A stretch of DNA of 64,000 nucleotides from an uncultured delta proteobacterium (GCA_963769935.1 CAVYNY010000017.1:96001-160000); one strand, 5' to 3'. Counted from the first letter of the stretch, positions 32,092 through 64,000 are shown. The notes: a model not told the origin generated them from the letters alone. Numbers and translations: made by a program.

Positions 32092-32913
32092 ATGCGAAAA
32101 TTTAGTCCAGCAAGACATATACTGTCGATGTTTCTCGGTTTATTTATAGTGCCGGCTTTTTTCGGCATTGCCTGGGGTCATCATGAAAGCATTCCGTGTG
32201 CGACGTGCCATGATAAGACGGCGGAAGAGCTCAAAGATTATGTCCACGACAGTACTAAATTTCCAATCAGTGCGCGCTGTCTTGCCTGCCATGACGGCAG
32301 CATGGATGTATCCGGACTTAATCCGCCTCATGTTATCAACGGCCGGAAGGAATTGGCCGGCGGTTCTTTTTCGCCCACAATTTTTTCCGACACCGTCGGC
32401 CATAATATTCTATCCATTGATCAGGAACAGGGATTGACCCCCCCGGGCGGCGCTTCCCTGGATGATTTTGGCTGTTTAAGCTGCCATGACGCCCACGACA
32501 ACGGAAATTTTCGCAATCTGAAAAAAAAGATAAATGGATACGCAACCTTGGTCGAGGCGGATGGCGACCCGAATTTTCAACAAAACGTTTACATTTCCGG
32601 AATCAACGATTTTTGCGGGGCGTGTCACGAGCGGTTCAACCGCACCCGCAACAGCCGTGGGGCAAGAGGGTGGCGTCAGCATCCTGTGGGAATTACGATA
32701 TCCGGCTCCCGACATGCCGATTTCAACCACTGGTCCAGCCAGTCCGAGCGCATCACCCAGGCCGAATATCCATCGGGAAATTCCTCTGACCTTTACGGAG
32801 CCCAGTTGATCTGTCTTTCATGCCACCGCGCCCATGCCACACCTTATAATAATGCGCTGCGCTGGGATTACAGCCAAAATTCCCAGGGATGTCTGGAATG
32901 TCACCCCTTTTAA
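32092..32913 (+). CDS. Short OmcS-like hexaheme cytochrome c
   Basis: 6 CxxCH; GGSF, GHNI, PPGG, CLSCHDAH, HPVG and CLSCHRAHA motifs colinear with 40689..41873; start approximate. Confidence 0.8.
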   Translation: MRKFSPARHILSMFLGLFIVPAFFGIAWGHHESIPCATCHDKTAEELKDYVHDSTKFPISARCLACHDGSMDVSGLNPPHVINGRKELAGGSFSPTIFSDTVGHNILSIDQEQGLTPPGGASLDDFGCLSCHDAHDNGNFRNLKKKINGYATLVEADGDPNFQQNVYISGINDFCGACHERFNRTRNSRGARGWRQHPVGITISGSRHADFNHWSSQSERITQAEYPSGNSSDLYGAQLICLSCHRAHATPYNNALRWDYSQNSQGCLECHPF

Positions 32914-32970
32914 ATGAATTTCCCACGCAAATACAACTTAGCGCTTATGGGGCTCAACCCTCGGCCCGGG

Positions 32971-33906
32971 TTACTCCTTAACGGCAAATACCTGTATGCG
33001 GTTGTTGTTCGTATCGGCAATAAAGATGTTCCCGCTCTTGTTGATGCACAGTTGAGAGGGATAATTTAAAAGACCTTCTTTCCAGCCCATCGCCGACAGT
33101 CGCCCCAGGAAGGATCCATCCGGCCCGAGAATGATGACCCTGCTGCCATTGTGGTCGACCAGATACATATGTCCCCGGTTATCGGTGGTTATGGCGGTCG
33201 GAAACCGCACATATTCCTTCAAGCTTTGGGTCAGCGGAGAAAACTCGGCCGAATCCTTGGCCGCCGAAAATACCTTGGCATTGATGCTATCGATCAAGAA
33301 AACCGTTCCTTTAAAATCCACTGTGAGATCCGAGAGGAAACCGTAGGCTTTCGGGAATTTTTTTTGTGCCAGGTATCGGCCCTCAGAGTTCAACACCAGG
33401 ATGCGCTCGGAAAATATATCTAAAATATAGATGTCGTCATTGCGGTCGATACAGAAACTGCGCGGGACATATGTCGGGGAAGGCAGTCCGGTCGGATTCA
33501 GGTCGCCGATAAATGCGCCGGCCGGGGTCAGGCGCACAATTCGGCGTTTTTTGCGGTCGAGCACGAAAATTTCGCCTTTGGAATTTAGCTGCACCCGGGT
33601 CGGATAGGCCAGCTCGGGCATCTTAATTGCCGGCGAGCCGCCGCTGATGGTTTGATCCCGCAATATATAGCGCAGGAGCCGGCCGTTTCCGGTGTCCGCT
33701 ACAATTACATGGGATTGGTCATCACAGGCAATGCCTTCAGGCTGCTTGAGCGGCGTGCCATCCTGGCCGGCGGTGCTCGTCTGAGCGGCATAAATGGTTG
33801 TGATATAGCTGAACTTCAACACTTCGGTCCCGAAAGATGCGTCTGAAATCAACCCGAAACTCAGCGTGGCGGTTATCAGGACAATCGTTTTGATAAATGC
33901 GCTCAT
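32971..33906 (-). CDS. NHL-repeat beta-propeller, exported
   Basis: PEGIA, VADTGNGR, IADTNNNRIQVF; signal peptide from MSAFIK. Confidence 0.9.
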   Translation of the reverse strand: MSAFIKTIVLITATLSFGLISDASFGTEVLKFSYITTIYAAQTSTAGQDGTPLKQPEGIACDDQSHVIVADTGNGRLLRYILRDQTISGGSPAIKMPELAYPTRVQLNSKGEIFVLDRKKRRIVRLTPAGAFIGDLNPTGLPSPTYVPRSFCIDRNDDIYILDIFSERILVLNSEGRYLAQKKFPKAYGFLSDLTVDFKGTVFLIDSINAKVFSAAKDSAEFSPLTQSLKEYVRFPTAITTDNRGHMYLVDHNGSRVIILGPDGSFLGRLSAMGWKEGLLNYPSQLCINKSGNIFIADTNNNRIQVFAVKE

Positions 33907-33919
33907 TGCGGTTGCAGTC

Positions 33920-35239
33920 TCACTTTCTGCGTTCGGGATGGCATTGGATGCACAAGTCATAAGTGGTTTCAAACGGCATCATATTGGGCTTGTTTCCGGT
34001 ACCGCAGGCCTTGTGACAGCTCAGGCATTCTACGGTAAGGTTCTTATCTCTCGGATCAATCACCTTTTCTCCAATCGGGTGGGTGGCATGGGTCTCCCAT
34101 TGATGACATTTACCGCAAATTTTCTCACCGATGGAGAGTTGCGGCGGCATGAGAAGGATATTGTCCGCCGCATGGGGTGCATGACAGGCGGTGCAGTTGC
34201 CCGTTTTTACAGGTTCGCACAAAGTCGTATTTTTGGGATTCTTGATCGACCATTGCTGCAGTCTAACCGTATCTTCATGACATCTGCCGCAGGTTTCGCC
34301 GATGGATTTTTCCAGAAGCTTTTTTTGTTTTGAGCCATGGGGATTGTGGCAGTTCAAACATCCGACTTTGTCCGTCAGCGGCCAGTGCACCCGGCTTTTG
34401 GCGAAAATCGCATCCACCGCATCGCGGTGACATTGCCGGCACAGTTCCGTTCCCTGTTTTTTGGTCCTGGTGGCATTCGGCGAGCCGGCATCGAAATGGC
34501 ATTCGGTGCATTTATTTTCGGCGACCGGAGGATGGACTTGATCGTATAAAATACCGCGGGTATTGGATCCATGCGCGCTGTGGCAGGAGTCGCAGTTCGT
34601 ATCGGCAACAGGGTAGCCCAGGTGTTTGCGTTTAAACGAAAGCTGGTTGGTTTTATGGCATTCCGTGCAGAGGGCCGGAACGACGTTTTTTAACAGATAC
34701 TCCGACCTTGCCGATGCGTGCGGATCGTGGCAGTTGAGGCAGCCTTTGCCCTTCATCAATGGATCGTGTTTGAATCGTACTTCGTTGGTTTGCTTACCGA
34801 CATCCTGGTGGCAATTCACGCACAGCGCATTGCCCGATTTGTTGAGAAGGAAGCTGTTGTCCGACCCGTGGGAATTGTGGCAGGTCTGGCAGTTGCCGTC
34901 AACGACCACCTTATGGATGCTGCGCGCTTTGTCCGGCACGACTTGTTGATGGCAACTGCGGCAAAGCGTATTGACGTCCGAAACTAAAAGATTCTTATGG
35001 CTGGAAGTATGCGGATCATGGCAGGCGGTGCAATCTCCCTTTTTAAGCAGCGGATGCACGGACCGTTGTTTGCTCGTTTTGGCCACGTCCTCGTGGCATT
35101 TCAGGCATTGGGTGCCTTTGGCGCCGGGCTGAAGACTAACCTTATGCTGCGGGTATGCCGGCGCAGCAAAGACCATCGTTAAAATTGTGCCGATTAATAA
35201 AAATCGGGCAGATTTAAGGTTTATAAAGTTTCGTCGCAT
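33920..35239 (-). CDS. 16-heme periplasmic cytochrome c
   Basis: 16 CxxCH counted, paired CxxCHxxH repeats, signal peptide. Confidence 0.9.
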   Translation of the reverse strand: MRRNFINLKSARFLLIGTILTMVFAAPAYPQHKVSLQPGAKGTQCLKCHEDVAKTSKQRSVHPLLKKGDCTACHDPHTSSHKNLLVSDVNTLCRSCHQQVVPDKARSIHKVVVDGNCQTCHNSHGSDNSFLLNKSGNALCVNCHQDVGKQTNEVRFKHDPLMKGKGCLNCHDPHASARSEYLLKNVVPALCTECHKTNQLSFKRKHLGYPVADTNCDSCHSAHGSNTRGILYDQVHPPVAENKCTECHFDAGSPNATRTKKQGTELCRQCHRDAVDAIFAKSRVHWPLTDKVGCLNCHNPHGSKQKKLLEKSIGETCGRCHEDTVRLQQWSIKNPKNTTLCEPVKTGNCTACHAPHAADNILLMPPQLSIGEKICGKCHQWETHATHPIGEKVIDPRDKNLTVECLSCHKACGTGNKPNMMPFETTYDLCIQCHPERRK

Positions 35240-35241
35240 GG

Positions 35242-37317
35242 CTATTCGATAATATGGCAATCCTTACACGTTTTGTCGGCAAACGGCTTGTGGACGACGG
35301 CTTTAAAAAACTTGGGATCTGTAGAGGTATGGGGGTCATGGCATTTGCCGCAATCCATCCGGCCGGCATCGACGCTGAGATGGGCCGTTTGAAAAGAATT
35401 TTTCTTATAGTCATGGCATTTGCCGCACAACAGCTGGATAGGTTGCACCATCAGCGCTCGCTGGGCTGCAAAATGGGGTTTATGACATATTTGGCAATTT
35501 TTGAGATCCGAGGGGGCATGCACGTAAATTTTGGCAGTCGCTGCCATAGCGTCTTTTGCGCCGGCGGCGGGAACCTCGGCTTCAGCAGCCGGTTCTTCCT
35601 CCGGTGGGTACATCCTGGCCTTCAGGTCGCTATGGCAGGTCAGGCAGAGGTCCGGGTAATCCGCCAGCAGAAGATTTTTTAGATTCGCTTTATGCGGACT
35701 GTGACACTTCGTGCACTCGCCGGCGACAACCGGGTCGTGTTTGCTTGCGATGTCTTTTATTTCCTCCCCAGGATCCGTGCCGTGGCAGGAATAGCATAAA
35801 AATCCCTGTTTGGCGACGGTCATTCCGGCAAAATCGCTGCCGTGCGCAGCATGGCATTTAAGACACTTTCCGTTTTTAAAAAACTCATGGTTGGACCCTC
35901 CCACGGCTGCCTTCATCAAGTCGCCATGGCAAGCGGCACACAGTTTCGGGTCGTCTATGGCGGCCACTAGAAGTTTATTGTTCTTTGCGCCATGGGATCG
36001 ATGGCAGGACTCGCATTTTCCTTCGATTACCGGCAGGTGCGTATTCGTCTTCAGGAATTTGACTTCAGCGTCAAAATGACAGGCGTAACAAACCGTGTCG
36101 GTCTTGCCTTTGAGCATCCCGTAGAAATTCGATCCGTGGGGGTTGTGACAGACGTCGCATTTGCCCTCGGAAAAAGGCTCATGTCGGATGTGATCTTTTT
36201 GAGCCTCTTTGGTCTTCGCATGGCAGCCCAGGCATAGCGGCTGCTCTTCGGCCAGCAGAAGTTTTTGGGTTTTGGCCGCGTGTTTTTGATGGCAGGAAAG
36301 ACAGCCCCGGCCATCGGTTACCGCTTTGTGAGGGACGCTTGCCGGTACGTTTTTATTTTCGTGGCAGTCAAAACAGAGCGTATTGCCCGCTTTGACCAGC
36401 AAAACCGGATTCTCCGAAGCATGGGGAGCATGACAGGCAATGCATTTTCCTTCCCGGAAGGGTTGATGTTCGATGGTGCCGCCGGCCTTCAGATCGGCAG
36501 CCTTGTGGCAATCTTCGCAAAGTTGGGCGCCTTTTTGCCTGGTGGCAAAGGGGTTTTGAGACGAGGACGCATTGTGGCATTTTTCACAATCAAGCTTGAC
36601 CACCGGGGAATGCGCGCTGGTTTTTAAAAGCTTAAGTTGAGCCGAGGCGTGAGGGCTGTGACAGCCGGCGCAGGAAGCAGTTTCCACCGGATATCCGCGA
36701 TGGGCAGTTTTGAAAGCGGCCTGTTGGACGTTGTGGCAGGACATACACAGCGGCACTTCTTTCTTCCTGAGAAGATCGGCCTGATCCGAGCTGTGCGAGA
36801 AGTGACAGGTGTCGCAGGAATCTGTCTGCAACGGCTTATGCACCACCTTCTTTTGAAAGGCTTTTTGCGGATGGCACTGGTAGCACAGATCACTGCCGGC
36901 AGCCTTTAAGAGAGGGGTTGTCTGGGACGCATGCGGGTTATGGCAATCGGTGCATTTCCCGGTTTTCAAAGCGGTGTGCACCGCGGCTTTATCCAGTCCG
37001 ATTTTTTCAGGAGGATGGCAGGAATAGCAGAGGTCGTTGCCTTCCCTTTTCAGCAGTAGTTTAGGGATGATGCCGTGTCGCAGGTGGCAGTCTTCGCACT
37101 TTTTTTCCTTGACCACCGCGTGCACATCCTTCATTGCCAGATATTTTGCCGCAAAGTCGCTGTGGCAATCCAGACATTCCTTGCGGGCGAATTTACCCGT
37201 TTGGCGTGAAGGGGCCGGAACGCAGGCGGCTACATAAATAAAAATGCCGGCGGCCAATAGAATGGCGACTCCGGCAGATCCGGACAGCCTCGGTAATGAA
37301 ATCGTGGTTTTCCTCAT
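35242..37317 (-). CDS. 26-heme cytochrome c lipoprotein
   Basis: 26 CxxCH counted; lipobox VAAC. Confidence 0.9.
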   Translation of the reverse strand: MRKTTISLPRLSGSAGVAILLAAGIFIYVAACVPAPSRQTGKFARKECLDCHSDFAAKYLAMKDVHAVVKEKKCEDCHLRHGIIPKLLLKREGNDLCYSCHPPEKIGLDKAAVHTALKTGKCTDCHNPHASQTTPLLKAAGSDLCYQCHPQKAFQKKVVHKPLQTDSCDTCHFSHSSDQADLLRKKEVPLCMSCHNVQQAAFKTAHRGYPVETASCAGCHSPHASAQLKLLKTSAHSPVVKLDCEKCHNASSSQNPFATRQKGAQLCEDCHKAADLKAGGTIEHQPFREGKCIACHAPHASENPVLLVKAGNTLCFDCHENKNVPASVPHKAVTDGRGCLSCHQKHAAKTQKLLLAEEQPLCLGCHAKTKEAQKDHIRHEPFSEGKCDVCHNPHGSNFYGMLKGKTDTVCYACHFDAEVKFLKTNTHLPVIEGKCESCHRSHGAKNNKLLVAAIDDPKLCAACHGDLMKAAVGGSNHEFFKNGKCLKCHAAHGSDFAGMTVAKQGFLCYSCHGTDPGEEIKDIASKHDPVVAGECTKCHSPHKANLKNLLLADYPDLCLTCHSDLKARMYPPEEEPAAEAEVPAAGAKDAMAATAKIYVHAPSDLKNCQICHKPHFAAQRALMVQPIQLLCGKCHDYKKNSFQTAHLSVDAGRMDCGKCHDPHTSTDPKFFKAVVHKPFADKTCKDCHIIE

Positions 37318-37346: not shown

Positions 37347-39083
37347 TTATCTTTTAAGGTCGGTGCGATAAATTTTAACGGGATAATATGCTTTGAGCTT
37401 TTCGGCCCAAACCTCCACGGACTTTTTCAGTTTATCATCGAAAACCTTTTTGGCAATTTCCTGCTTGACCTCTTCAAAGGGTTGAAGCTGGGCCGGGACG
37501 ACCTGATAGATGTACAGCACATAATACCGGCCCCCGGGGCCTTCATACAGTCTGAAATCACCGGTCTTCGCTCTGGAAACCGCTTTTTGCACATTTTCCG
37601 GCATACTGCTTTCCGTTATCAGACTGCCGTCAAACTTTAAAATTCCTGGGGTATTTTGATCGACCTGACCTTCGGCATTGGAGCCTAGCCAGTTGAAGTC
37701 GGTACCCTTTTTGAGCTTATCGATGGCCGCCACGGCAGCGCTTCTTTGGTCAAATACGAGGCTTTTAATTCTCAACAGCCGGGGGGCGGTGTATTGTTCA
37801 GCGTTTTGGGAATAATAGGTTTTCAAATCCTTCGGTTCAAGCTTAATATCGGGGGCGACAGCCTTGCGGATGAACTCATCGAAGAGCAGAGAAATTTCAT
37901 ATTCCGTAACTTTTTGGCGATATTCGTCTGTTTTATCGAGTCCCTGCTTCAAGGCTTCTTTCAACAGCAGTCGTTTTTGAAGCATTTCTTCCAGGATGTC
38001 GCTTTTTTTGCTGTTGATTCTTTTATTTTTGGCGGCCAATTGGACTCCGTGGTAGAATTTCGCTTCAACGGCCGCGCTGAGGTCTGAAACGGTAATGGGT
38101 TTTTCGCCTTTAATCCGGGCCAGAACTCTTTTGTCCGTCAACAAATTTTCAAATCCCGGCTTTTCAGCTTCGTAGTCCAGCCGGTCTAAAAGCGTTTGAT
38201 CCAATTCAACATATTTTTTTTTCAATTCGCTGTAGTATTGTCTGGCCGCCTTAACTTTCTTCTGGTTAAGTGCCTGCCGCCGCGCTATTTCCTTGGCCTC
38301 CGGGTCCTCATCAGCCGGATAGCGGATATCTTCCAGTTTAAAGACGACAAATCCCTTTTTGCCGATGGAAAGAACCGGGCTGACCGATCCGACTTCCATT
38401 TGCGCCGCAAGCTGGGCCACCGGCAGCGTCAGGTCTTTGCTTTTTACATAATCGGCCCGGTTGTCCGCTTCGCCGATGCCCCAGTCAAGGGCTTTTTGCA
38501 AAACGTCGTCAAAACTGACGCCCGCTTTCAGCTGGGTTTGAATCTGCCTGGCAGCATCTTCCGTTTTCAGCCGAAGCGATTTGATCTTAAACTCCTTTAC
38601 CATGGATTTATAGCGCTGTTCAACCACGTCCTCATCGGCCGTAATATCTTTGACATAGCCTTCAAGCAAAAGCTCCCTGAGGGCTTGTTTTGAGTATGTA
38701 TCCAGCGCCGCTTTAATTTCGGGAAGCTCATCCAGTCCCATGTTCCTTGCTTCCAATACGATCAATCGCGTATTGATCAGGCGCTGCATAATGTCGGAAA
38801 AATCGATCCGGCCGGCTTTTTCTCCCCTGGGCCGGGCGGCATGGGAAGCGGCCACGGCGCGATCCAATTCCTCCAGGCTGATCGGATCGTCATTGACGGT
38901 TGCGACGGCTTCTTTACCGTCAATGATCGGCAATTTCTGATCAGACGCCTTGCCGTAGCCGGCAGCTGCCAGGAGAAAAAAACTGGCCGTCACGATGATC
39001 AGCACTGATGAAACTGGTTTCAGGCGCATTGGATTCCTTTTCGGATGTGCTCTCGTGGGTACACTGAGGCGGAAAAAAGCCAT
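37347..39083 (-). CDS. SurA/PpiC-like peptidyl-prolyl isomerase chaperone (duplicated module)
   Basis: VATVNDDPIS, LIVLEARNMGLD and a second copy VLARIKGEKPIT; alternative start at 39029. Confidence 0.8.
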   Translation of the reverse strand: MAFFRLSVPTRAHPKRNPMRLKPVSSVLIIVTASFFLLAAAGYGKASDQKLPIIDGKEAVATVNDDPISLEELDRAVAASHAARPRGEKAGRIDFSDIMQRLINTRLIVLEARNMGLDELPEIKAALDTYSKQALRELLLEGYVKDITADEDVVEQRYKSMVKEFKIKSLRLKTEDAARQIQTQLKAGVSFDDVLQKALDWGIGEADNRADYVKSKDLTLPVAQLAAQMEVGSVSPVLSIGKKGFVVFKLEDIRYPADEDPEAKEIARRQALNQKKVKAARQYYSELKKKYVELDQTLLDRLDYEAEKPGFENLLTDKRVLARIKGEKPITVSDLSAAVEAKFYHGVQLAAKNKRINSKKSDILEEMLQKRLLLKEALKQGLDKTDEYRQKVTEYEISLLFDEFIRKAVAPDIKLEPKDLKTYYSQNAEQYTAPRLLRIKSLVFDQRSAAVAAIDKLKKGTDFNWLGSNAEGQVDQNTPGILKFDGSLITESSMPENVQKAVSRAKTGDFRLYEGPGGRYYVLYIYQVVPAQLQPFEEVKQEIAKKVFDDKLKKSVEVWAEKLKAYYPVKIYRTDLKR

Positions 39084-39132: not shown

Positions 39133-39147
39133 GCAATTACTATGCCA
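39133..39147 (-). promoter_or_regulatory. Sigma54 -24/-12 promoter (chaperone-26heme-16heme-NHL operon)
   Basis: TGGCAT-AGTAA-TTGC on the minus strand. Confidence 0.85.
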
Positions 39148-39272: not shown

Positions 39273-39308
39273 TGGTGAAATCACCAAACCGATTTGGCAA
39301 TTTCACCA
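39273..39308. promoter_or_regulatory. Tandem enhancer (sigma54 activator) sites
   Basis: TGGTGAAATCACCA and TGGCAATTTCACCA, 22 bp apart. Confidence 0.8.
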
Positions 39309-39405
39309 TCCTTTATAAACCATGCATTTCGTTTAGTACGCGCTGAATTTTTATAACAATTTGTTATTAAATAACAATCGATCAATGACGCCCCTTGCCG
39401 CCGCG

Positions 39406-39420
39406 TGGCACACTCGTTGC
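39406..39420 (+). promoter_or_regulatory. Sigma54 -24/-12 promoter (NHL-omcS operon)
   Basis: TGGCAC-ACTCG-TTGC, consensus match. Confidence 0.9.
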
Positions 39421-39486
39421 AATTATCGTTGCAATAACTATTGGGACCTGATATCTGGTAATAGCTTGAATTGCAGGATTACCGCG

Positions 39487-40473
39487 ATGAAACGTATGCT
39501 CGACAAAATCAAACACTCCATTTCAGCCGCTCTTCGACCGGCGGTTGTCACATTTTTGTTGAGTGCCGTATGGGTTGCAGGTGTCCCGGCCGAAGTTCAG
39601 GCCGAGGTTCAAACCTCCTTCCTTTACCGGCTGTCCAATTTTTCAGGACCCGTGGCTTCCAATTGGGCAACGATCTCAGTTGATCAAGCCAGAGACGAAA
39701 TTTATGTAACCGACGGCCAGTCGGGCATTATCCGGATTTATAATGATCGGGGCATGGAGGTTTATCGTTTTGGCGATGACTGGAATTCAGGCAGCCTCCT
39801 GTTGGCAGCCGCCGCCCGAAATGATGGAAACATTCTCGTCTTGACCCGCAGGTTCTCCGCAAATTCAATTGTGCTCTGCAATTTCAGAGGCGAGTTTCTG
39901 GCCGTACTTGCTTTGCAAGACTTCCCCCCCGATTTTTCGGGTTTTTCACCGACAGACATGGTTTACCGAGACAGACGGCTTTACCTGCTGGATAATAATT
40001 TACTGCGGCTGGCCGTCACCGATTCCAACGGTTATTTCATGGCCGGCTACGATCTCGGCGCGCTGTTGAAGATCGACGATAATAAGCGAATGGCAACCCA
40101 GCTCGGCGGGTTCAGCGTGGATCACGCTGGGAACATATACTTTACCGTGCCGGTGCTTTTTACAGCCTTTAAACTTTCGCCGGACGGTAAGCTGGCAAGC
40201 TTCGGCAAGCCGGGAAGCGCTCCCGGCCGGTTTAACAATCTGGGGGGAATTGTCGCCGATGACCAGGGCTATATTTATGTGGCGGACCGGTTAAAGTCGG
40301 TTGTCATCATATTTGATAAAGATTTCAAGTTCGTGAATGAGTTCGGTTATCGCGGACGCCGGCCGTATAATCTGATAGCTCCCAATGATTTGGATCTGGA
40401 TGCCGCCGGCCGGCTGTATGTGTCCCAGCTGGCCAGTATCGGCGTCAGCGTCTTTAAAATTATCTACCAGTAG
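39487..40473 (+). CDS. NHL-repeat beta-propeller upstream of omcS
   Basis: FGKPGSAPGRF, IYVADRLKS, EFGYRG; the ATG at 39487 lies downstream of the promoter. Confidence 0.88.
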   Translation: MKRMLDKIKHSISAALRPAVVTFLLSAVWVAGVPAEVQAEVQTSFLYRLSNFSGPVASNWATISVDQARDEIYVTDGQSGIIRIYNDRGMEVYRFGDDWNSGSLLLAAAARNDGNILVLTRRFSANSIVLCNFRGEFLAVLALQDFPPDFSGFSPTDMVYRDRRLYLLDNNLLRLAVTDSNGYFMAGYDLGALLKIDDNKRMATQLGGFSVDHAGNIYFTVPVLFTAFKLSPDGKLASFGKPGSAPGRFNNLGGIVADDQGYIYVADRLKSVVIIFDKDFKFVNEFGYRGRRPYNLIAPNDLDLDAAGRLYVSQLASIGVSVFKIIYQ

Positions 40474-45882: not shown

Positions 45883-46476
45883 ATGGTTAGAGCGGCAAAT
45901 CGCACACATTTCAGGCTCTGTCTTTTATCCTTTATCCTTATTTTTTCGGTTGCCTGCGGTTCCAAATACAACATATCCGAAAATTACCATGACCCGGATG
46001 TCGATTTCGCGCTCCTGCGGACTGTGGCCGTGATGCCGTTTTCCAATCTGACCAATGATAAGCTGGCGGGGGAAAGGGTGCGCAGTACTTTTATGAACAG
46101 CCTCCTGTCTACCGGCGCGCTTTATGTGATTCCTCCCGGGGAGGTGGCGCGCGGAATTTCACGGGCTGGAATCGACAACCCATGGGCCCCATCCGGCGAG
46201 GATATCAACAAATTCGCGGCGATTGTCGGTGCCGATTCCGTGATTACCGGGGTTGTCACGGAATATGGGGAGGTACGGTCGGGCGCCGTAACGGCCAATG
46301 TGATATCATTGAGCATGCAAATGCTTGAGAAAGATTCACGCAAAGTCATATGGTCTGCAGCCACTACCAAAGGCGGGATATCCATCTGGGATAGGCTTTT
46401 CGGCGGCGGCGGCCAGCCCATGGAAGATGTAACCCAAGCGGCGGTAGATGATATTATCAATAAACTTTTCTATTAG
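45883..46476 (+). CDS. CsgG/DUF799-like lipoprotein
   Basis: Lipobox SVAC, VAVMPFSNLT, ADSVITGVVTEY, KVIWSA. Confidence 0.75.
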   Translation: MVRAANRTHFRLCLLSFILIFSVACGSKYNISENYHDPDVDFALLRTVAVMPFSNLTNDKLAGERVRSTFMNSLLSTGALYVIPPGEVARGISRAGIDNPWAPSGEDINKFAAIVGADSVITGVVTEYGEVRSGAVTANVISLSMQMLEKDSRKVIWSAATTKGGISIWDRLFGGGGQPMEDVTQAAVDDIINKLFY

Positions 46477-56231: not shown

Positions 56232-57182
56232 CTACTTTGATTCAGCTTCGCCCACCTGGCGGTATACGCCGACCTTGTTGGCAAACATTTCCACCACATA
56301 GAGTCGGTCCTGCCGATCTATGAATAGGCCAACAGGAGTCTTGAATTTTTTTACCTTGCCGGTTGCCGGCTCACCGATAGCGGCGTAAAACTCCCCGGTC
56401 GACGTGAAAATTTGAATGACGCCCATGTAACTGTCACTGACATAGATGCGGTTGTTTTTATCAACGGCGACGCCCTTGGGTCTGAAAAATTCTCCTTTTT
56501 CAACCCCCCATCCGCCGATGAAATTTACAAACAATCCGTCCGGATTCAGCTCCTGAACCCGGGTATTGATCACATCAACGATATAGAGGTATTTTTGTTT
56601 ATCCAGCGCTATCAGAAAAGGATAGCGGAAGGCGCGTTTGTCGGTGCCCGGTGTGCCCCATGAATCAAGCAATTTAAGATTTGAGAGATCGTAGACCAGA
56701 ATGCGATGGTTGTCGTTGTCCACGACATAGCAGCGGTGGCGGGTGTCATCGACGGCCACATCGGTGGGGTCCGCCGGATGTTTCAAAGCCGGAAGTTTAA
56801 TTTGGGCGATAAAGCCGCCGGTGCGATCAAATATCTGCACCCGATGGTTGCCGGAGTCAGCCACATATACCCGGCCTGATTCAGGGATGTCGATGCCCAG
56901 CGGGTATTTGAACTCCCCGTCGCCTGCACCCGCCAGGCCGAAGGAAGAAACCGGCATTCCCCGGGAGCTGTATATCCGGATACGGTTGTTGACGCCGTCA
57001 ACCACATAGATTTGTCCATCTTTTGATACAGCGACCTCGCTGGGCTCCTTTAGCTGATCGGTTATTTCGAATTGAAGCTCCACATTAATTAGACGAATCC
57101 CCAATGCCGGCGTCACCGCCAGCAGCAGGATGACGGCCGACAGCACTAGGTATGAGTAGCTGTGTTTAGGCAAATATAACAT
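56232..57182 (-). CDS. NHL-repeat beta-propeller, exported
   Basis: YVVDGVNNRI, VADSGNHRVQIF, FFRPKGVAVD. Confidence 0.9.
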   Translation of the reverse strand: MLYLPKHSYSYLVLSAVILLLAVTPALGIRLINVELQFEITDQLKEPSEVAVSKDGQIYVVDGVNNRIRIYSSRGMPVSSFGLAGAGDGEFKYPLGIDIPESGRVYVADSGNHRVQIFDRTGGFIAQIKLPALKHPADPTDVAVDDTRHRCYVVDNDNHRILVYDLSNLKLLDSWGTPGTDKRAFRYPFLIALDKQKYLYIVDVINTRVQELNPDGLFVNFIGGWGVEKGEFFRPKGVAVDKNNRIYVSDSYMGVIQIFTSTGEFYAAIGEPATGKVKKFKTPVGLFIDRQDRLYVVEMFANKVGVYRQVGEAESK

Positions 57183-57228
57183 CAAAGTCCTTTTTTAGGT
57201 TTCAGGTATCAGGTGTCAGCACAGCCAA

Positions 57229-57479
57229 CAATCAAAATCACAAATTCCAAATCACAAAACTCAAACAATTTCCAATGACCAAAATTCAAAATTCCAAACA
57301 GGACTTCATCGGTTTTGTTATCGCTTTAGATAAATAAGCGATCCTTTGATCGCGAACGCACAAAAGTTCTAAAACATGAAAAAATAAAACAGTTTGATTT
57401 TCTTGATATGGCCGGTTTCGGTCATTGATTATTGTGATTTGGAATTTATTTGTTATTTGGTGCTTGTAATTTGGAATTT
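57229..57479. repeat. Inverted array of AAATYMC heptamers
   Basis: AAATCACAAATTCCAAATCAC..CAATGACC versus GGTCATTG..GTGATTTGGAATTT. Confidence 0.75.
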
Positions 57480-57542
57480 ATACCTTTCCGCCAGTTCTTT
57501 GCCATCGGTTTTCTGCCTCCTGGAAATTGACATGACACCCGT

Positions 57543-58520
57543 CTAGTTTTCAAACAGGTCCGGAAAATAAAAGGTTTTGTATTTAGTCACCAGGCCTTTG
57601 ATGTTCAGCGATTTAAGATTGGTGGCCGTCTTTTCGCTAAAGCCCAGCTGCTTAAAATCCAGGATGCTGTGGGAAGAATGGCACTCCTCACAGGCCACGC
57701 TGATTTCCTTTTTGGCGATGTCCCGGTGAAAATAACTCAGGCCTTCGGTTCTCTGCTTGTCTGTCAGGGATTTTTCCTTCTGCAGGAATTCTTTTGCCTT
57801 GCGGGTGTCCTCAGGGTTGAATGTCAGTTGTCTTTCTCCGTCATTTTTTACATAAACCGCTATTCTGGATAAAAAATGCGCTGATTTGTGGGCGGTTTGC
57901 GTCCTGGGGTTGTAATACGTACCGAAAGGCTTCCCGCTGAAATCCGCGTTTTCGGTGTCTTTCCAGTCAAAGGTGAAATCAGGGAATTTTTCTTTTTTTA
58001 AATGACATACGTCACAGACCATAAATCCGGTGTGCAAATTTAAAAGCGCACGGACCAGTTTATTTTCAGTATGGGGATACAACGGGTGGCAAACACGGCA
58101 GGCGGTTTCGTCATCCAGCCGGGTGATATACGACTGTTCTCCCTTATGGATATCTTTCAAAGGGTAATTTTTTACCAGCTGCTTGTCTTTTAATTCGCGG
58201 TGACAGGCAGTGTTGCAATTAACCTGTGTCTCACCCGTGTGGGGAACTTTCACCACACCGGTGTGGCACATGCGGCAGTCCACCTTGCCATGGGGCGACT
58301 GGTCATATTTTGCTTCATCAATATGCAGCACTGTGAATCCGCCATCTTTATTATGCCGGACAAGACCTGGATATTGATGACAGGTAAGGCACCCCCCTTC
58401 GTCGAGTGCAAAGCTCACAGTGGCCGTACTAAGGAGCAAGCTGCAAACAACCAGTGTCACAAAGACCAATGGATACGCCCTCAAATTTTTTAAACGAATT
58501 GAATGAAAAAGCGCTTTCAT
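57543..58520 (-). CDS. Multiheme cytochrome c (5 CxxCH + 1 CX3CH)
   Basis: CLTCH, CRMCH, CNTACH, CRVCH, CDVCH, CEECH; the ATG at 58520 lies downstream of the sigma54 promoter. Confidence 0.88.
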   Translation of the reverse strand: MKALFHSIRLKNLRAYPLVFVTLVVCSLLLSTATVSFALDEGGCLTCHQYPGLVRHNKDGGFTVLHIDEAKYDQSPHGKVDCRMCHTGVVKVPHTGETQVNCNTACHRELKDKQLVKNYPLKDIHKGEQSYITRLDDETACRVCHPLYPHTENKLVRALLNLHTGFMVCDVCHLKKEKFPDFTFDWKDTENADFSGKPFGTYYNPRTQTAHKSAHFLSRIAVYVKNDGERQLTFNPEDTRKAKEFLQKEKSLTDKQRTEGLSYFHRDIAKKEISVACEECHSSHSILDFKQLGFSEKTATNLKSLNIKGLVTKYKTFYFPDLFEN

Positions 58521-58596
58521 GACAATAACGTCCTGGTCTGTTTGTTCAAAATCTGAATCACCCAATGCCAATAATGCTAACCTCGAAACTTTAGAG

Positions 58597-58611
58597 GCAA
58601 TTACTATACCA
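58597..58611 (-). promoter_or_regulatory. Sigma54 -24/-12 promoter
   Basis: TGGTAT-AGTAA-TTGC, 14/15 identical to 39133-39147. Confidence 0.85.
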
Positions 58612-58763
58612 AACAGCATTTAGTTTCCAGCTTTTTTGCCAAAGCATCTTTTACCCCCCCTTGGTGTTCAGGGAAAGCAGGGTGGTTGCCGCGTCCTCGT
58701 TTTTGCATCGGAAAAACAAGGGCCGCGTGCAAAAAAACCGTTGCGGTCAGGGCATTCGTTGCC

Positions 58764-58799
58764 TGGTGAAATCACCAATCTGATTCGGTGAAATGCCCA
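58764..58799. promoter_or_regulatory. Tandem enhancer sites
   Basis: TGGTGAAATCACCA and CGGTGAAATGCCCA, 22 bp apart. Confidence 0.8.
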
Positions 58800-58886: not shown

Positions 58887-58901
58887 TGGCACATACATTG
58901 C
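58887..58901 (+). promoter_or_regulatory. Sigma54 -24/-12 promoter
   Basis: TGGCAC-ATACA-TTGC, consensus match. Confidence 0.9.
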
Positions 58902-59042
58902 AAAATATTCTTAAAATCAAATAATTGCAACCCAATTCCGTTTCGAATCCCAATTTTTAAGTAAGGTCAGGTAAAGCATCTGCGGTAATTTATAACCGAC
59001 TGGTAAATGCCGATTCTTCAATTTAAAGAGGCAGTGCAGCTT

Positions 59043-60119
59043 ATGGTAATCAAAAAACTCCTTAAATTCATAATCTCCTTCTGGGCCATCACCTTATTCT
59101 TAGCGCTTATCACGCCGCCGGGTTCCGTAGCCTCCGATATCGGCAACTGTCTTTTATGCCACAAGTACCCCGGTCTAAGCCGGATAGACGAAAACGGCAA
59201 ATTCAGGCTCATGTACGTCAATGAAGACATATTCAATAAAAGCGTACATGCCAAAGTTAAATGCGAAGGCTGCCACCCGGACATCCAAAAGATTCCCCAC
59301 GAGCCGGCCAAAAAAGTCGACTGCCTGACCCAATGCCACATTATCGAGCCATCCAGCGAAAAAAAATTTTCCCACAAAGATGTCGCGGATTATTTGGCCA
59401 ATAGTGTGCATGCCAAGGTCGATAAAAATGGACAACCCAAAAAATATCAGGAGGATATACCGACGTGCAAGAACTGTCATGAAAACCCGCTTTACCGGCC
59501 GCTGTCTTTTTTCAAACGGGTGCGCCCCGGCATATCCGATGTCGCTATAGGACGGTGCCGGGTTTGTCATAAATCCGATGAATTTATCTATAGATTCTAT
59601 AACCACGTGACGACCAGGCTGCACAAGATCAGAAACCCGAGAAATATCGCCGAAGTGTGTGCCAGATGCCATGACGATGACGAAATCGTCGCGCGGCATA
59701 ACCTGTCCACCAAAGCCGTATTCTCCTACGGCGAAACGTTTCACGGCAAGGCGGCCCGTTTTCTGGATGAAAGAATCCCCGATTGCCTCGACTGTCATGT
59801 CAAACCCGGCGAATCCGTGCACCAGATGCTGAGCCACAACGATCCGAATTCCATCACGCATGTAAACAACCGAGGCAGAATCTGCGCCACTGCGGACTGC
59901 CATCCCAAGGCCACACCGCAAATGGCCAACTACAAAGTTCACGCTGAGTTCAACAAGGAGCAAAGCCCTCTGCAGTATTATTTTCAGGTATTTTTTATCG
60001 TATTGACCGGCGGCACCCTGCTGCCCCTGATGGGCCTGTTGTTTCTCGATTTATTCAGAAGATTGATTCCGCATGCTGCCATCAAACGGAGTAAGTCCAC
60101 CAATGGAAAAACATCTTAA
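59043..60119 (+). CDS. Membrane-anchored multiheme cytochrome c (CbcL c-domain-like)
   Basis: 6 CxxCH + CLTQCH + CATADCH; signal peptide and C-terminal TM helix. Confidence 0.85.
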   Translation: MVIKKLLKFIISFWAITLFLALITPPGSVASDIGNCLLCHKYPGLSRIDENGKFRLMYVNEDIFNKSVHAKVKCEGCHPDIQKIPHEPAKKVDCLTQCHIIEPSSEKKFSHKDVADYLANSVHAKVDKNGQPKKYQEDIPTCKNCHENPLYRPLSFFKRVRPGISDVAIGRCRVCHKSDEFIYRFYNHVTTRLHKIRNPRNIAEVCARCHDDDEIVARHNLSTKAVFSYGETFHGKAARFLDERIPDCLDCHVKPGESVHQMLSHNDPNSITHVNNRGRICATADCHPKATPQMANYKVHAEFNKEQSPLQYYFQVFFIVLTGGTLLPLMGLLFLDLFRRLIPHAAIKRSKSTNGKTS

Positions 60120-60972
60120 AATCAAGATAAAAAACGGCCAAAAATATTTCTACAAATTTACGCCGCTTCAGAGAGCACAGCATATAACCATTGCATCATG
60201 TGTCATCGTGCTGGTCCTGACCGGCATGCCCCTTAAATTTCATGATGCATTCTGGGCGCCCTATCTTTATGCGTTCTTTGGCGGAATTAAGGTGGCCCCG
60301 GTGGTTCATAAGACTGCCGGCACGGTCTTGATGCTTCTTTTTATGTTTCACCTGATTTACGTGTTCTACTGCATCGTGACGGACATGATAATTCCGTTGA
60401 AGAAAAAAAACCAACTGCGGGTAGGCACGGTCCTCAAAACCCTGCTGACCCACCCCATCATGCCAAGCTTCAAGGATGTCAGGGATATCATCGATCTTTT
60501 GAAATATTACCTGTTCTTGACCGATAAACGTCCCGCAGGCGAAAAGTTTACCTGGAAAGAAAAGTTTGACTACTGGGCACCCTTCTGGGGCATCGTCATC
60601 ATGGTGACCACCGGTATCATTATGTGGCAGAAGGAAATCGTTACCAGTATCCTGCCGGGATATGTCATCAACTTCGCCCTGATTGCCCACAGCGACGAAG
60701 CCCTGCTGGCGGCCTTGTTTTTGTTCATCTGGCACTTTTACAATGTGCATTTTTCCACCTCCGTTTTTCCCATGGGTACGGTATTTCTGACGGGATATCT
60801 GCCGGAGCATCTGATGGTCGAAGAACATTATGATTACTACCAGAAAGTCATGAAAGCCGCCGGATTAGAGGATGAGATTCTGGCACCGGATGGTTCGGCA
60901 GCAAAAAAATCGGAAAAAGCGCCGGAACCAACCCGCATCATATCCATCTCGGATCTGCCGCGAGTATCCTGA
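60103..60972 (+). CDS. Di-heme cytochrome b (FdnI/CbcL b-domain-like)
   Basis: QRAQH, LTGMPLK, VHK, KFTWKEKFDYWA, AHSDEALLA, WHFYNVH. Confidence 0.88.
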   Translation: MEKHLKIKIKNGQKYFYKFTPLQRAQHITIASCVIVLVLTGMPLKFHDAFWAPYLYAFFGGIKVAPVVHKTAGTVLMLLFMFHLIYVFYCIVTDMIIPLKKKNQLRVGTVLKTLLTHPIMPSFKDVRDIIDLLKYYLFLTDKRPAGEKFTWKEKFDYWAPFWGIVIMVTTGIIMWQKEIVTSILPGYVINFALIAHSDEALLAALFLFIWHFYNVHFSTSVFPMGTVFLTGYLPEHLMVEEHYDYYQKVMKAAGLEDEILAPDGSAAKKSEKAPEPTRIISISDLPRVS

Positions 60973-60998: not shown

Positions 60999-61877
60999 AT
61001 GAAGACGTTGGTTGCAAAACTATATATCCTGGGGTCTTTGGCTTTAACGGTGATTTTTATCATCATTATCTGGAAGGTGACTTTCGGGCATATTGTCGAA
61101 GAGTATCGCGCCCGCAAGGTGAATGTAGAACTCGCCCAAATAAAAGAAAAGCAGCAAAAGGAAAAAGAGGCAGTCACATTTCAAAAAGCGATTCTGGAAG
61201 GCGAGAAGCGCCAAAAGATTTACCTCGGCTACCGGGTTTTGGAGCAAAGGTGGATAGAAGGCCATTTTCATCACATTGATTTTGATTTCAAGCCGGACAA
61301 GACAAATTACTGCATTGAATGCCACGGCGACCTGCCCCACGACAAGATCAAGGAGTTACGGGCGTTCGGCAATATGCATGCCTCTTTTATGGCCTGCGAG
61401 ACCTGTCATGTCAGGCTTGAGGGGGAAGCCCGGACCGGTGTGTTCAAATGGTACGACCGCCAGGCCGGTCAGATTGTTGAAAGTCCGGTGAAAGAAGGGG
61501 TTCGGCCCGGCATGTATAACGCAAAAATTCTGCCGTTTGAGCGGGTTAACGGACAGCTGCAAAGAGTCGACAATCCGGAAAGAATTGCATTCGCGCACGA
61601 ATACCAGAAAACGGAAAAAGACCTGACCGAGCTGCAAAAGTCCAAGGCCAGAAAAATCATTCATAACATCGTCAGTGAAAAACCCTATTTATGCGAAATG
61701 TGCCACCAGACGGAGAATCCGGTTTTGCCGCTCAAAGAGCTCGGATATCCGCAGCACCGCATTGATACGATCGTCAGCACCGAAGTCATCGGGATGATCA
61801 AAAATTACACCAAGTTCTATATTCCATTGCTGCTGGAGCCCGGGGCGGGAACCCAAGCCCCGGCCCCGCAGCAGTAA
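60999..61877 (+). CDS. Membrane-anchored triheme cytochrome c
   Basis: N-terminal TM helix; CIECH, CETCH, CEMCH; resembles the C-half of 57543..58520. Confidence 0.85.
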   Translation: MKTLVAKLYILGSLALTVIFIIIIWKVTFGHIVEEYRARKVNVELAQIKEKQQKEKEAVTFQKAILEGEKRQKIYLGYRVLEQRWIEGHFHHIDFDFKPDKTNYCIECHGDLPHDKIKELRAFGNMHASFMACETCHVRLEGEARTGVFKWYDRQAGQIVESPVKEGVRPGMYNAKILPFERVNGQLQRVDNPERIAFAHEYQKTEKDLTELQKSKARKIIHNIVSEKPYLCEMCHQTENPVLPLKELGYPQHRIDTIVSTEVIGMIKNYTKFYIPLLLEPGAGTQAPAPQQ

Positions 61878-61945
61878 ATATTTAAACAACTATGAACAAT
61901 ATTGAGGCAATTGAAGCCTATCAGAAGGTCTTAAACCTGTCGGCC

Positions 61946-62033
61946 TTGGAGTAATGGAGTGATGGAGTATTGGAGTGTTGGAGTATTGGAAAAAGACATC
62001 AAACCTTTAGCCATTTCTCCAGTACTCCAATAC
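61946..62033. repeat. Inverted array of TGGAGTRN octamers
   Basis: TGGAGTAATGGAGTGATGGAGTATTGGAGTGTTGGAGTATTGG ... CTCCAGTACTCCAATAC. Confidence 0.8.
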
Positions 62034-62122
62034 GCTGAAACCGATTTAAATTGAAACCGCACACAACAGGTTACCTTCGTTTGGTTCATAGATCCGAAAA
62101 ATAAAGATAGAGGAGAACTGCT

Positions 62123-63280
62123 TTGGGAATTGGCAGATTAAGCGCTTTTACATCCTGTATTTTTTCCGTTCTTTTTTTGTTGCTGTCTTCCGGCATGGCC
62201 CTGGGAACAAATGCCGTTTCCGACACGGAAAATTGTCTGCTGTGCCATCGATATCCGAGCATCGGCAGATATGATGAAAGCGGAACCAAAAGGGTTTTTT
62301 ATGTCAACGATAAAAAATTTGCCGCCTCAGTTCACGGCAAATTGAAGTGTAAAGATTGTCATGTCGACCTCAACCAGATACCGCACACGGATGTCAAAAA
62401 GGTTGATTGTGCCACCAAATGCCACATCAAGGAGCCCTCAACCAATCAGGAATTCTCCCACATCAACATGATTGAAAAATTCGAGGCCAGCGTCCATGGA
62501 GCCGGAACGGCCGAAAATCCCAAACCTTTTCCCGAAGATTTGCCCACCTGCAAATACTGCCACGAAAATCGCATGTACAACCAGTTGGATGGGGTATGGG
62601 GCAACAGCGCGGCCCTGTCCAATGAAACTCTGGCGCGCTGTGTCGGCTGTCACACGAAGGAAAGCTGGGCTCAAAATTTTTACGCCCATTTTACCCATCG
62701 CATGCGGCGCCGCCGGACCCAGGCCGAAGTCGTAAAATTGTGCACCAGCTGCCATGAAGATACCCATAAAATGGCGCGCCACGGTCTGGAGAGTATTGAG
62801 ACTTATAAAGACACTTTTCACTGGAACCTGGTCAGGTACGGCGTCAAAAACGCCCCGGACTGCATCAGCTGCCATGTACCGGTCGGTTATGCCACTCACG
62901 ACATACGCCCCCGAAGTGATCCGATTTCACCGCTTCACATTTTCAACCGCATCAAGACCTGCAGCAACCAGGGCGGGATTCAGATCTGTCATCCCGGGGC
63001 GACGGCCGAGTTTGCCACCGGCAGAGTGCATGCGTACGGCACAAAAGTTCAGATGCTGGCCGGCACCAACTTCAGTGATTTCAGTAATAAGGAAATGACC
63101 AGCGTACTCAAACGGGCCGAAGCCGATACATCTGAAGCAGAAGTTTTTGATTACAAGGTGCTGCAGTTGATCAAGCTGTTTTATAAAATCATGATCGGCG
63201 GGACGGTTTTGTTTATGGGCTTTCATCAATGGCTGGATTTTTTGCGGACAAAAAGAAGGCAGAAGCAGTCAAAAAAATAA
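62123..63280 (+). CDS. Membrane-anchored multiheme cytochrome c, paralog of 59043..60119
   Basis: 6 CxxCH + CATKCH + CSNQGGIQICH; C-terminal TM helix. Confidence 0.85.
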   Translation: MGIGRLSAFTSCIFSVLFLLLSSGMALGTNAVSDTENCLLCHRYPSIGRYDESGTKRVFYVNDKKFAASVHGKLKCKDCHVDLNQIPHTDVKKVDCATKCHIKEPSTNQEFSHINMIEKFEASVHGAGTAENPKPFPEDLPTCKYCHENRMYNQLDGVWGNSAALSNETLARCVGCHTKESWAQNFYAHFTHRMRRRRTQAEVVKLCTSCHEDTHKMARHGLESIETYKDTFHWNLVRYGVKNAPDCISCHVPVGYATHDIRPRSDPISPLHIFNRIKTCSNQGGIQICHPGATAEFATGRVHAYGTKVQMLAGTNFSDFSNKEMTSVLKRAEADTSEAEVFDYKVLQLIKLFYKIMIGGTVLFMGFHQWLDFLRTKRRQKQSKK

Positions 63281-63339
63281 GGCATAATCCGGGATCATAA
63301 ATAACTATTGTAAGACATATTTCCTGAAAGGCCGCTAAC

Positions 63340-64000
63340 ATGGAAATTGAAGAATCAGTATTAAGCGCTGCTGCCGCACCGCCTGTCGAAAATGTCAGGG
63401 GCAGTCGGTATTTTGTGCGACTCAACTATTCCGAAAGGGTGCAGCATTCGGTGTTTGCCATGTGTTTCATTGTCCTGGTCATCACCGGATTCATGCTCAA
63501 AATTCCGGACAGCATCGTGAAGTCCTTTGGAACGGCGGGCGAGATCGTGTTCAGCTACCGCAGCATTTTGCATCGCACGGCCGGCATAATTATGATGCTG
63601 GTGGGTGTCTATCACTTTTATTATCTGATCTTTAAACGGGCGGGCCGTCGCTGGCTGATCGACATGCTGCCGCGCTTAAAAGATTTAAAAGATATGTGCG
63701 ATAATTTCCTCTATTACATCAACCTGAAAGAAGAACCACCTGAATTTGATCGCTTCAGCTATAAACATAAAATCGAATACGGGGCCCTGATTGCCGGCAC
63801 CACGATCGTATCGGTTACCGGACTGATCTTGTGGTCGCAGTACAAATGGAGCAAATTTGTCGTGGACATTGCGGCTCTTGTCCACGGCATGGAAGCCATT
63901 CTTGCGTGTTTGGCAATCATGATATGGCATCTGTATGAAATCCATTTCAGACCGCACAAATCTCCGCTGGACAATACGTGGCTTACCGGAGTGATCGATG
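63340..64000 (+). CDS. Second di-heme cytochrome b; runs off the window (absent from the ORF track)
   Basis: Manual translation: ERVQH, ITGFMLK, LHRTAG, DRFSYKHKIEY, VHGMEAILA, WHLYEIH. Confidence 0.88.
   Translation, partial: MEIEESVLSAAAAPPVENVRGSRYFVRLNYSERVQHSVFAMCFIVLVITGFMLKIPDSIVKSFGTAGEIVFSYRSILHRTAGIIMMLVGVYHFYYLIFKRAGRRWLIDMLPRLKDLKDMCDNFLYYINLKEEPPEFDRFSYKHKIEYGALIAGTTIVSVTGLILWSQYKWSKFVVDIAALVHGMEAILACLAIMIWHLYEIHFRPHKSPLDNTWLTGVID

Follow-up and report, generated by a model that had tools for sequence, protein, structure and literature searches.

We analysed a 64,000-nt window of the genome of an uncultured delta proteobacterium (GCA_963769935.1, contig C17:96001-160000; genome 8.0 Mb, 96.7% complete) that carries an unusually heme-rich locus. 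This locus is composed of two cassettes: cassette A, an OmcS-family/osc/Oet gene set, and cassette B, which comprises CbcL-like cA-cB-c3 modules and 20-heme cytochromes. We favour, with moderate confidence, the reading that these cassettes, which have sigma-54 and enhancer-like signals in common, encode an inducible, outward-directed chain that draws electrons from the menaquinol pool and passes them to extracellular acceptors. From the gene content, the homologies, four promoter motifs, two enhancer-like sites and their conservation, we infer the following steps. A heme-bearing kinase would sense the periplasmic redox state, and an NtrC-type regulator would bind a tandem palindrome and fire both divergent promoter pairs. 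Each cA-cB-c3 trio would act as a menaquinol:cytochrome c oxidoreductase of a split and extended CbcL type; the potentials to which the two copies are tuned probably differ. A 20-heme protein, putatively a covalent OmcE-like chain, would carry electrons across the periplasm, where 16- and 26-heme cytochromes and a 28-strand barrel would pass electrons, the hexaheme subunit, or both, over the outer membrane. Finally, the OmcS-family hexaheme would polymerise outside and deliver electrons to Fe(III)/Mn oxides, humics or partner cells.

The original prediction for this DNA had described a complete quinone-to-nanowire conduit with 95 CxxCH motifs between 32092 and 64000. Ten open reading frames (ORFs) in this interval do bear 95 motifs (6+16+26+6+1+20+5+6+3+6), one of which belongs to the histidine kinase. 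The predicted components (b/c modules, 20-, 16- and 26-heme cytochromes, barrel, OmcS-like protein, assembly factors and two-component system) are all present, and the locus does continue past the window end, with ORFs on the contig up to ~71,850. Genome-wide, 28 ORFs have at least three CxxCH motifs, 210 motifs in total; since 12 of these ORFs and 124 of these motifs fall inside this one 40-kb locus, the clustering is not due to chance. The words 'complete conduit' and 'nanowire' are interpretations, as polymerisation is known for OmcS itself only and the barrel may function as a channel for secretion.

The regulatory sequences link the two cassettes. A scan with the sigma-54 consensus found only four motifs in the window (~1.1 expected from the genome rate), all located in two divergent spacers and facing outwards. 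In each spacer an enhancer-like site lies ahead of the rightward promoter, at a distance of 122-132 bp. The window has two occurrences of the 24-bp enhancer pattern, against none in 100 shuffles; at three or fewer mismatches the tandem motif has three sites in 8 Mb, two of them at this locus, and at four or fewer it was absent from all of 2000 random 850-bp windows. Among relatives bearing OmcS or the barrel, the motif is present in 6/11 OmcS-arm spacers and 6/8 module spacers, compared with 1/8 module spacers of genomes without a barrel match. It is also retained at both cassettes in one genome (G127) in which they lie 3.3 Mb apart. The compared genomes are kin, some possibly entered under two ids, and the consensus was drawn from the same sequences, which counts against our reading; the enhancer evidence is therefore strong as regards the window and, across genomes, suggestive. 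The physical and regulatory fusion that had been predicted is nonetheless supported by promoter and enhancer motifs common to both cassettes. The heme-bearing sensor domain of the kinase also adjoins hexahemes in Malonomonas and Desulfobulbaceae loci, and in Geobacter sulfurreducens the gene number of a kinase, GSU2507, is adjacent to that of omcS (PMC11077965); thus, the regulator probably came with cassette A. Sediment metatranscriptome contigs (four runs, one study) match parts of both cassettes at ≥95% identity; DNA carry-over is possible, contig depth cannot rank genes, and the contigs are no proof of expression.

We compared related genomes for the linkage of the two cassettes. In G002, G004, G005, G006 and G009, all of which were chosen for carrying both, cassette B lies next to the OmcS cassette or to regulator genes of that cassette. 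In an even sample of 250 genomes of the order, 10 had the barrel, 16 the triheme c3 subunit of cassette B, and six had both: three on one contig, two on separate short contigs and one far apart on a closed chromosome. With only 3/6 double carriers on one contig, physical linkage is not obligatory, another point against the proposed chain. Patchiness in the genus, the unlinked cassettes of G127 and the repeat elements in several spacers would all fit a chance neighbourhood on a heme-gene island, devoid of common function. We regard this as very improbable, given the conserved promoter and enhancer motifs common to both cassettes, the recurrence of the adjacency in the five other genomes, and a locus GC content of 50.7% against 51.2% for the genome; there is no tRNA or tmRNA on the contig and no GC shift marking an island. 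In G002 (C47:38250-88873; L148-L150), ~50 kb of unrelated genes, some of them presumably topoisomerase-like and integrase-like, stand between the barrel and the next cassette gene, representing an insertion or a misassembly.

The homologies of cassette B suggest that cA-cB-c3 is a split CbcL homolog with an added triheme subunit. In Geobacter-type genomes cB1 matches best to the C-terminal half of a protein of 616-670 aa with nine CxxCH, the N-terminal half of which is matched by cA1, and cA and cB are collinear with residues 11-296 and 328-583 of these fused b/c proteins. Against a 618-aa protein of Geobacter sp. AOG1 that has nine CxxCH and is named CbcL on the basis of its architecture, cA1 scores E 2e-23 and cB1 E 5e-41. 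A PDB sequence search returned no match for cA1 and only FdnI, at E 0.002, for cB1. Four FdnI-type histidines are invariant in 41 cB homologs, as in CbcL; of the five membrane histidines of CbcL, the one in the first helix is kept in module 2 and absent from module 1 and its eight orthologs. CbcL (Cbc1, GSU0274) is a single chain of fused b/c form with nine c hemes (nine CxxCH) and six membrane helices (bioRxiv 2021.04.15.440034), whereas three genes are found here, cA has seven to eight c-type motifs (six CxxCH plus one or two atypical), and the last CbcL helix is replaced by the anchor of the triheme subunit. Moreover, cbcL is constitutive (bioRxiv 2021.04.15.440034), whereas there is sigma-54 motif evidence for the modules, of which the locus has two copies and contig C10 a third. 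This third cA-cB-c3 module (L194:1816-6755) is followed by a 10-heme cA::c3 fusion, and modules of the third type adjoin the other cassettes in G002, G005, G006 and G220.

The c3 subunit belongs to a family of 351 proteins, and none of the best 120 of the 351 bears a cytochrome or family name. It is encoded in 24/400 genomes of the phylum and 16/250 of the order. In 9/11 loci of other lineages c3 is fused behind cB (551-583 aa), followed by an NHL gene and usually a 20-heme gene; an association of cB with c3 is predicted because of these gene fusions only. The label CbcBA was rejected for the modules, as the best Geobacter-type matches are CbcL-type fusions and cB holds at least four histidines; this exclusion is drawn from descriptions and the CbcL-type matches, with no CbcBA sequence compared directly. 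CbcBA (Cbc5) similarly has separate b and c genes, a C-terminally anchored cytochrome c and a sigma-54-dependent operon, but it is described as having no sequence homology to CbcL, with three heme histidines in CbcB and the fourth from CbcA (bioRxiv 2021.04.15.440034), whereas cB itself holds all four. One published precedent is gene cluster gc5 of Desulfurivibrio alkaliphilus (DA_2136-DA_2141; PMC12545173), in which a 1,095-bp membrane multiheme gene precedes a 582-codon triheme 'CbcL-like 3x' gene, matching the cB::c3 fusions in size and number of hemes, adjacent to a porin-cytochrome set. There, the fused copy is single, the porin partner is another one and the OmcS-like genes lie elsewhere. 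The 'CbcL-like 3x' gene was up, together with OmcS-like genes, in ferrihydrite incubations; gc5 itself is tabulated in that source and not analysed as a system (PMC12545173).

The 20-heme cytochrome contains repeats that resemble the nanowire protein OmcE. Each repeat has the OmcE-type unit of four CxxCH motifs and four further histidines in OmcE order, and the number of tetraheme units per chain is three in the two 20-heme proteins of the locus and four in 24-heme homologs. A profile of 55 units had OmcE-family structures (9YUQ and 7TFS) as its top PDB matches, and aligned with seven OmcE-like proteins at an hhalign probability of 98.9% over 133 columns, i.e., the whole protomer. Part of this signal is generic, because four control multihemes also aligned, over fewer columns, at 90-96% (26-heme, 63 columns; 16-heme, 33; OmcS, 25; edge hexaheme, 105). 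A PDB sequence search with the whole 20-heme protein gave only NrfB, at E 7e-4. OmcE is a single-unit, secreted, polymerising protomer, whereas the units here are joined by threes or fours in one chain behind an 8-heme head and have shorter loops.

Cassette B also occurs with a different partner. In 5/7 barrel-less genomes examined it is followed by an OmcE-type tetraheme and propeller set, which fits the published omcE cluster (bioRxiv 2025.10.22.684050); two such tetrahemes were tested and match OmcE structures at E 2e-25 to 7e-14. Five of these genomes gave no OmcS match. We tentatively suggest, as a possibility and below even odds, that cassette B supplies the inner half of extracellular electron transfer (EET) in Desulfobacterota as a portable and so far undescribed unit, in which a three-subunit CbcL-like quinol oxidoreductase and a length-defined, covalent OmcE-type periplasmic wire could be plugged into OmcS or OmcE cassettes. 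If so, abundant sulfate reducers of the Sva0081 type would respire minerals or partners through nanowires, controlled by a heme-sensing sigma-54 switch. OmcE-type cassettes were noted in genomes of the order Desulfobacterales (L144:3836-13468, L181, L183, L187, L188), where the tetraheme is accompanied by propellers, a 660-700-aa aromatic-rich protein, an 11-heme cytochrome and often a pentaheme paralog; in G004, OmcE and OmcS cassettes lie within 35 kb.

Cassette A is a published cluster that has already been reported outside Geobacter, and the predicted likeness to the G. sulfurreducens omcS neighbourhood is real. All four genes of the osc/Oet core (16-heme, 26-heme, peptidyl-prolyl isomerase (PPIase) and six-bladed propeller) are present. 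The G. sulfurreducens osc block (GSU2500-GSU2493) has the same hexaheme, propeller, barrel, two exported proteins, PPIase, 26-heme, 16-heme and NHL propeller, with a sensor kinase nearby; unlike that block, cassette A is split by inversion into two divergent arms, has one hexaheme only and no OmcX-like 12-heme, and is joined to cassette B. The same set was described by Skennerton 2017 as a 16-heme, 26-heme, PPIase and propeller operon core in SEEP-SRB1 and other Deltaproteobacteria (PMC5539420), and by Murali 2023 as OetABI, with OmcS-like genes in the omcS position and an occurrence in ~9% of Desulfobacterales (PMC10553843). The osc names come with proposed roles in OmcS folding, secretion and morphology (PMC12977616, PMC13194489), oscJ being GSU2494 (PMC13194489) and GSU2495 a 26-heme protein (PMC12977616). 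At least four of six companion genes occur in 42/78 hexaheme loci (Geobacteraceae, Desulfuromonadales, Desulfobulbaceae, Nitrospirota, Myxococcota and others), and the divergent two-arm layout in 9/39 informative loci, whose labels are Desulfobacterales-type or Deltaproteobacteria. In loci L030, L050, L052, L061, L068-L070, L075, L080 and L081 (labelled Krumholzibacteriia, Gemmatimonadota, Fibrobacteraceae or unclassified), one protein with 42 CxxCH takes the place of the 26-/16-heme pair.

The hexaheme keeps the histidine set of OmcS: His2, His16 (the inter-subunit ligand of OmcS) and the other common histidines are present in 39-40 of 40 homologs. It scores 263 bits to OmcS, compared with 427 for the Geobacter protein at the GSU2501 position, and forms a clade of its own in a FastTree built from 64 hexahemes, none of them from G. 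sulfurreducens; being further from OmcS than the GSU2501-position protein, it is filed as an OmcS-family member only, and not as an ortholog of OmcS (GSU2504) in preference to OmcT, OmcJ or GSU2501. The AF2 model of the barrel (predicted local distance difference test score, pLDDT, 88.5) has 28 strands and an inserted sandwich. Its structural match to MtrB (6R2Q_B; Z 17.7, root-mean-square deviation (rmsd) 8.1, 415 aligned), first by VIA and second by Foldseek among generic barrels, shows a predicted large porin fold and is no proof of function. The insert (44267-44755) matches the CBM32 of AlyQ (Z 13.0, rmsd 2.9, 130 aligned) and, by strand count, would face outwards. Identity to this barrel is 26-33% for barrels in Geobacter/Geotalea loci and only 25-28% for a second, distantly related barrel group within the order of the host.

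Several further observations weigh against an outward chain. OscE/F/G have been proposed to serve secretion and not conduction (PMC13194489), in one study Fe(III)-oxide reduction was not blocked by deletion of OmcS (PMC11077965), the 16/26-heme genes were reported silent during metal respiration (PMC5539420), and the physiological role of cytochrome filaments is disputed (PMC11077965, PMC13194489). A heme-free model of the OmcE-like repeat reached a pLDDT of 59.5 and had no structural match, and the hexaheme, found in 2/22 congeners, is patchy in the genus. Some of these points lend themselves to a different reading, which we consider quite unlikely, of two co-regulated but separate machines: cassette A would fold and secrete a structural, adhesive or capacitive filament through the barrel as a pore, and cassette B would feed other periplasmic acceptors. 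The proposed functions of osc genes in OmcS folding, secretion and morphology (PMC13194489), the carbohydrate-binding-like insert of the barrel, the dispute over filament conduction and the lack of a barrel match in 10/16 triheme-positive genomes of the order would agree with such a division. However, in barrel-less genomes cassette B usually adjoins another nanowire/porin cassette, the best structural match of the barrel is MtrB, and secretion alone does not easily account for the 42 hemes held by two proteins of cassette A.

The host lies outside Geobacter, as predicted. Its RpoB is only 61-63% identical to those of four Geobacteraceae/Geopsychrobacteraceae genomes (Geobacter, Geotalea, Geomonas, Malonomonas) and, in a 24-row tree, falls in a 100-supported clade with Desulfobacterales-labelled genomes; identity and tree together rule out a Geobacterales host. 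The two nearest named neighbours are 92% and 89% identical in RpoB, and SG8_13 82%. A check for dsrAB had been proposed; dsrA passes its cut-off, and the genome also has qrcAB, tmcAB and a twin-arginine [NiFe] hydrogenase. We conclude that the host is a Desulfobacterales-type sulfate reducer of marine sediment. Its 16S rRNA has no mismatches to probes DSS1431 and DSS658, a probe match and not a phylogenetic placement; the target of DSS1431 is a subgroup within the Sva0081 marine benthic group (PMC6305295). The host is likely free-living and Sva0081-type. An obligate partnership with anaerobic methanotrophic archaea (ANME) is unlikely for an 8-Mb genome with a twin-arginine [NiFe] hydrogenase, unlike SEEP-SRB1, which is described as being without periplasmic hydrogenases (PMC5539420).

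These host features bear on the direction of flow. Electrons from a partner or a reduced mineral could instead enter via the Oet conduit and reach menaquinone for sulfate respiration. Such a role has been proposed for OetABI/OmcS-like proteins in ANME partners, where CbcBA is thought to be reversed (PMC10553843); the host has DsrA, Qrc and Tmc, and module 1, which lacks the helix histidine kept by CbcL and module 2, could run in the other direction. We consider inward use unlikely: the host, large and hydrogenase-bearing, does not resemble SEEP-SRB1, Qrc is an existing inward route, the barrel is distant from the second barrel group of the order, and the nearest expression evidence concerns iron reduction (D. 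alkaliphilus, PMC12545173).

The outward chain, if it operates, would be relevant to a step that is poorly understood, namely the electron route over the periplasm to cytochrome filaments (PMC10553843), as the co-regulated locus offers candidate parts for every step. The covalent OmcE-like chain is a possible soluble, fixed-length model wire, and the enhancer-like site is a direct entry point for work on regulation; an organism with a similar unit is in culture. EET capacity in part of Sva0081 would bear on iron-sulfur coupling, because this group makes up as much as 8% of cells in some tidal sediments (PMC6305295). The suggestion that the locus may be undescribed does not stand for its outer half, given the published 16/26-heme, PPIase and propeller operon, the OetABI/OmcS-like cluster and the osc block (PMC5539420, PMC10553843, PMC12977616, PMC13194489), nor for the entire inner half, given the CbcL-like triheme membrane protein tabulated by a porin-cytochrome cluster in D. 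alkaliphilus (PMC12545173). Cassette B as a whole is less well described. What appears to be new is this signature common to both cassettes, the OmcE-repeat cytochrome, the OmcS/OmcE cassette interchange and the Sva0081-type host. Our literature search found no description of cassette B, the OmcE-repeat protein, the enhancer, or EET genes in Sva0081; 'CbcL' and 'Sva0081' do not appear in 12 of 17 supplements of Murali 2023 (PMC10553843), nor the two-cassette arrangement in the accessible parts of bioRxiv 2026.05.27.727921, PMC10954620, PMC12133095, PMC4814501 and PMC11077965. An osc survey (Shen et al. 2025) may already include Desulfobacterales loci.

Table 1. Features of the locus by window position; positions above 64,000 lie on the contig beyond the window.
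Feature	Position	Strand	Remarks
Hexaheme cytochrome c, signal peptide, left edge of cassette A	32092..32913	+	6 CxxCH; homologs by same cassette in G002, G005, G037
NHL beta-propeller, last gene of leftward arm	32971..33972	-	Pfam NHL; after 16-heme gene in relatives
16-heme cytochrome c, OscJ/GSU2494-like, probably OetA	33920..35260	-	16 CxxCH; named by heme number and position; core gene of published operon (PMC5539420)
26-heme cytochrome c, OscI/GSU2495-like, probably OetB	35242..37317	-	26 CxxCH; VAAC lipobox
SurA/parvulin-type PPIase, OscH-like chaperone	37347..39083	-	Pfam Rotamase_2, SurA_N
Sigma-54 -24/-12 motif facing PPIase-26-heme-16-heme arm	39133..39147	-	kept in 3/17 PPIase homologs scanned, all three with divergent layout
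Candidate activator site	39274..39307	.	two GGTGAWWTCACC palindromes 22 bp apart
NHL-like beta-propeller	39361..40473	+	likely true start ~39487; homolog in 58/78 hexaheme loci
Sigma-54 motif facing NHL-OmcS-barrel arm	39406..39420	+	strict motif in 12/28 homolog upstream regions
OmcS-family hexaheme cytochrome	40689..41873	+	6 CxxCH; full-length match to OmcS 6EF8, E 4e-77, 263 bits
YncE-like beta-propeller lipoprotein	42059..43489	+	OscD-like by position and size
Outer-membrane beta-barrel, OetI/OscE-like	43493..45688	+	28 predicted strands; inserted CBM32-like domain (residues ~259-421)
GNA1162-like lipoprotein	45883..46476	+	OscF-like by position; in 48/78 loci
Exported protein, no family match	46448..47584	+	OscG-like by position; in 36/78 loci
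Fused MFS/spermidine-synthase-like membrane protein	47713..49281	+	NF037959; homologs in only 4/78 loci
NtrC-family sigma-54 response regulator	49301..50689	-	likely activator of all four promoters
Sensor histidine kinase	50686..52896	-	periplasmic CxxCH at residue 89, HAMP, two PAS domains
20-heme cytochrome c, 803 aa	53532..55943	-	8-heme N-terminal part; three OmcE-like tetraheme repeats (residues 309-454, 457-617, 620-784)
NHL beta-propeller	56232..57185	-	Pfam; conserved neighbour of 20-heme gene
Pentaheme (+1 CX3CH) cytochrome	57543..58619	-	related to modules' c-type subunits; likely start ~58520
Sigma-54 motif facing pentaheme-NHL-20-heme-kinase-regulator	58597..58611	-	
Second tandem-palindrome candidate site	58765..58798	.	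same GGTGAWWTCACC pair, 22 bp apart
Sigma-54 motif facing cytochrome b/c modules	58887..58901	+	strict motif in 8/12 homolog upstream regions
Module 1 cA, CbcL c-domain homolog	59007..60119	+	6 CxxCH + CX3CH + CX4CH; C-terminal membrane helix without His
Module 1 cB, CbcL b-domain homolog	60073..60972	+	FdnI-type diheme cytochrome b
Module 1 c3	60999..61877	+	N-terminally anchored triheme cytochrome, unnamed family
Module 2 cA	62123..63280	+	6 CxxCH + CX3CH; CbcL first-helix His kept
Module 2 cB	63340..64095	+	crosses window edge at 64000
Module 2 c3, triheme	64159-64938	+	beyond window
Heptaheme lipoprotein	65702-66676	-	beyond window
Presumably ResB-like protein	66766-68169	+	beyond window; no NCBIfam match at 1e-25
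CcsB, maturation gene like the ResB-like one	68321-69160	+	beyond window
Second 20-heme cytochrome	69374-71854	-	beyond window; 65% identical to first

Other features of the window and genome were noted. A gene at 10129-13146, like that at 47713-49281, encodes a membrane spermidine-synthase-like protein, ~1000-aa homologs of which lie by cassette A in G005 and G037. An NrfH/NapC-like tetraheme gene followed by an octaheme gene of the HAO/hydrazine-dehydrogenase kind is found at 7610-9679, a second octaheme of similar size being encoded on contig C9, and 13576-29400 contains metal/arsenic genes (Mop-domain regulator, ACR3 arsenite exporter, CDF transporter, MFS exporter, permease). Contig C26 (L202:1707-3080) has a cbb3-type oxidase subunit I-like gene that scores under the curated cut-off. 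Non-coding repeats with 20-110 genome copies fill spacers at 30660-30830, 31723-32056, 53048-53473, 55948-56211, 57205-57541 and 61890-62096; they look like recent insertions of the miniature inverted-repeat transposable element (MITE) type, since RNA-library contigs of related strains join across 55942-56229 and 57193-57544.

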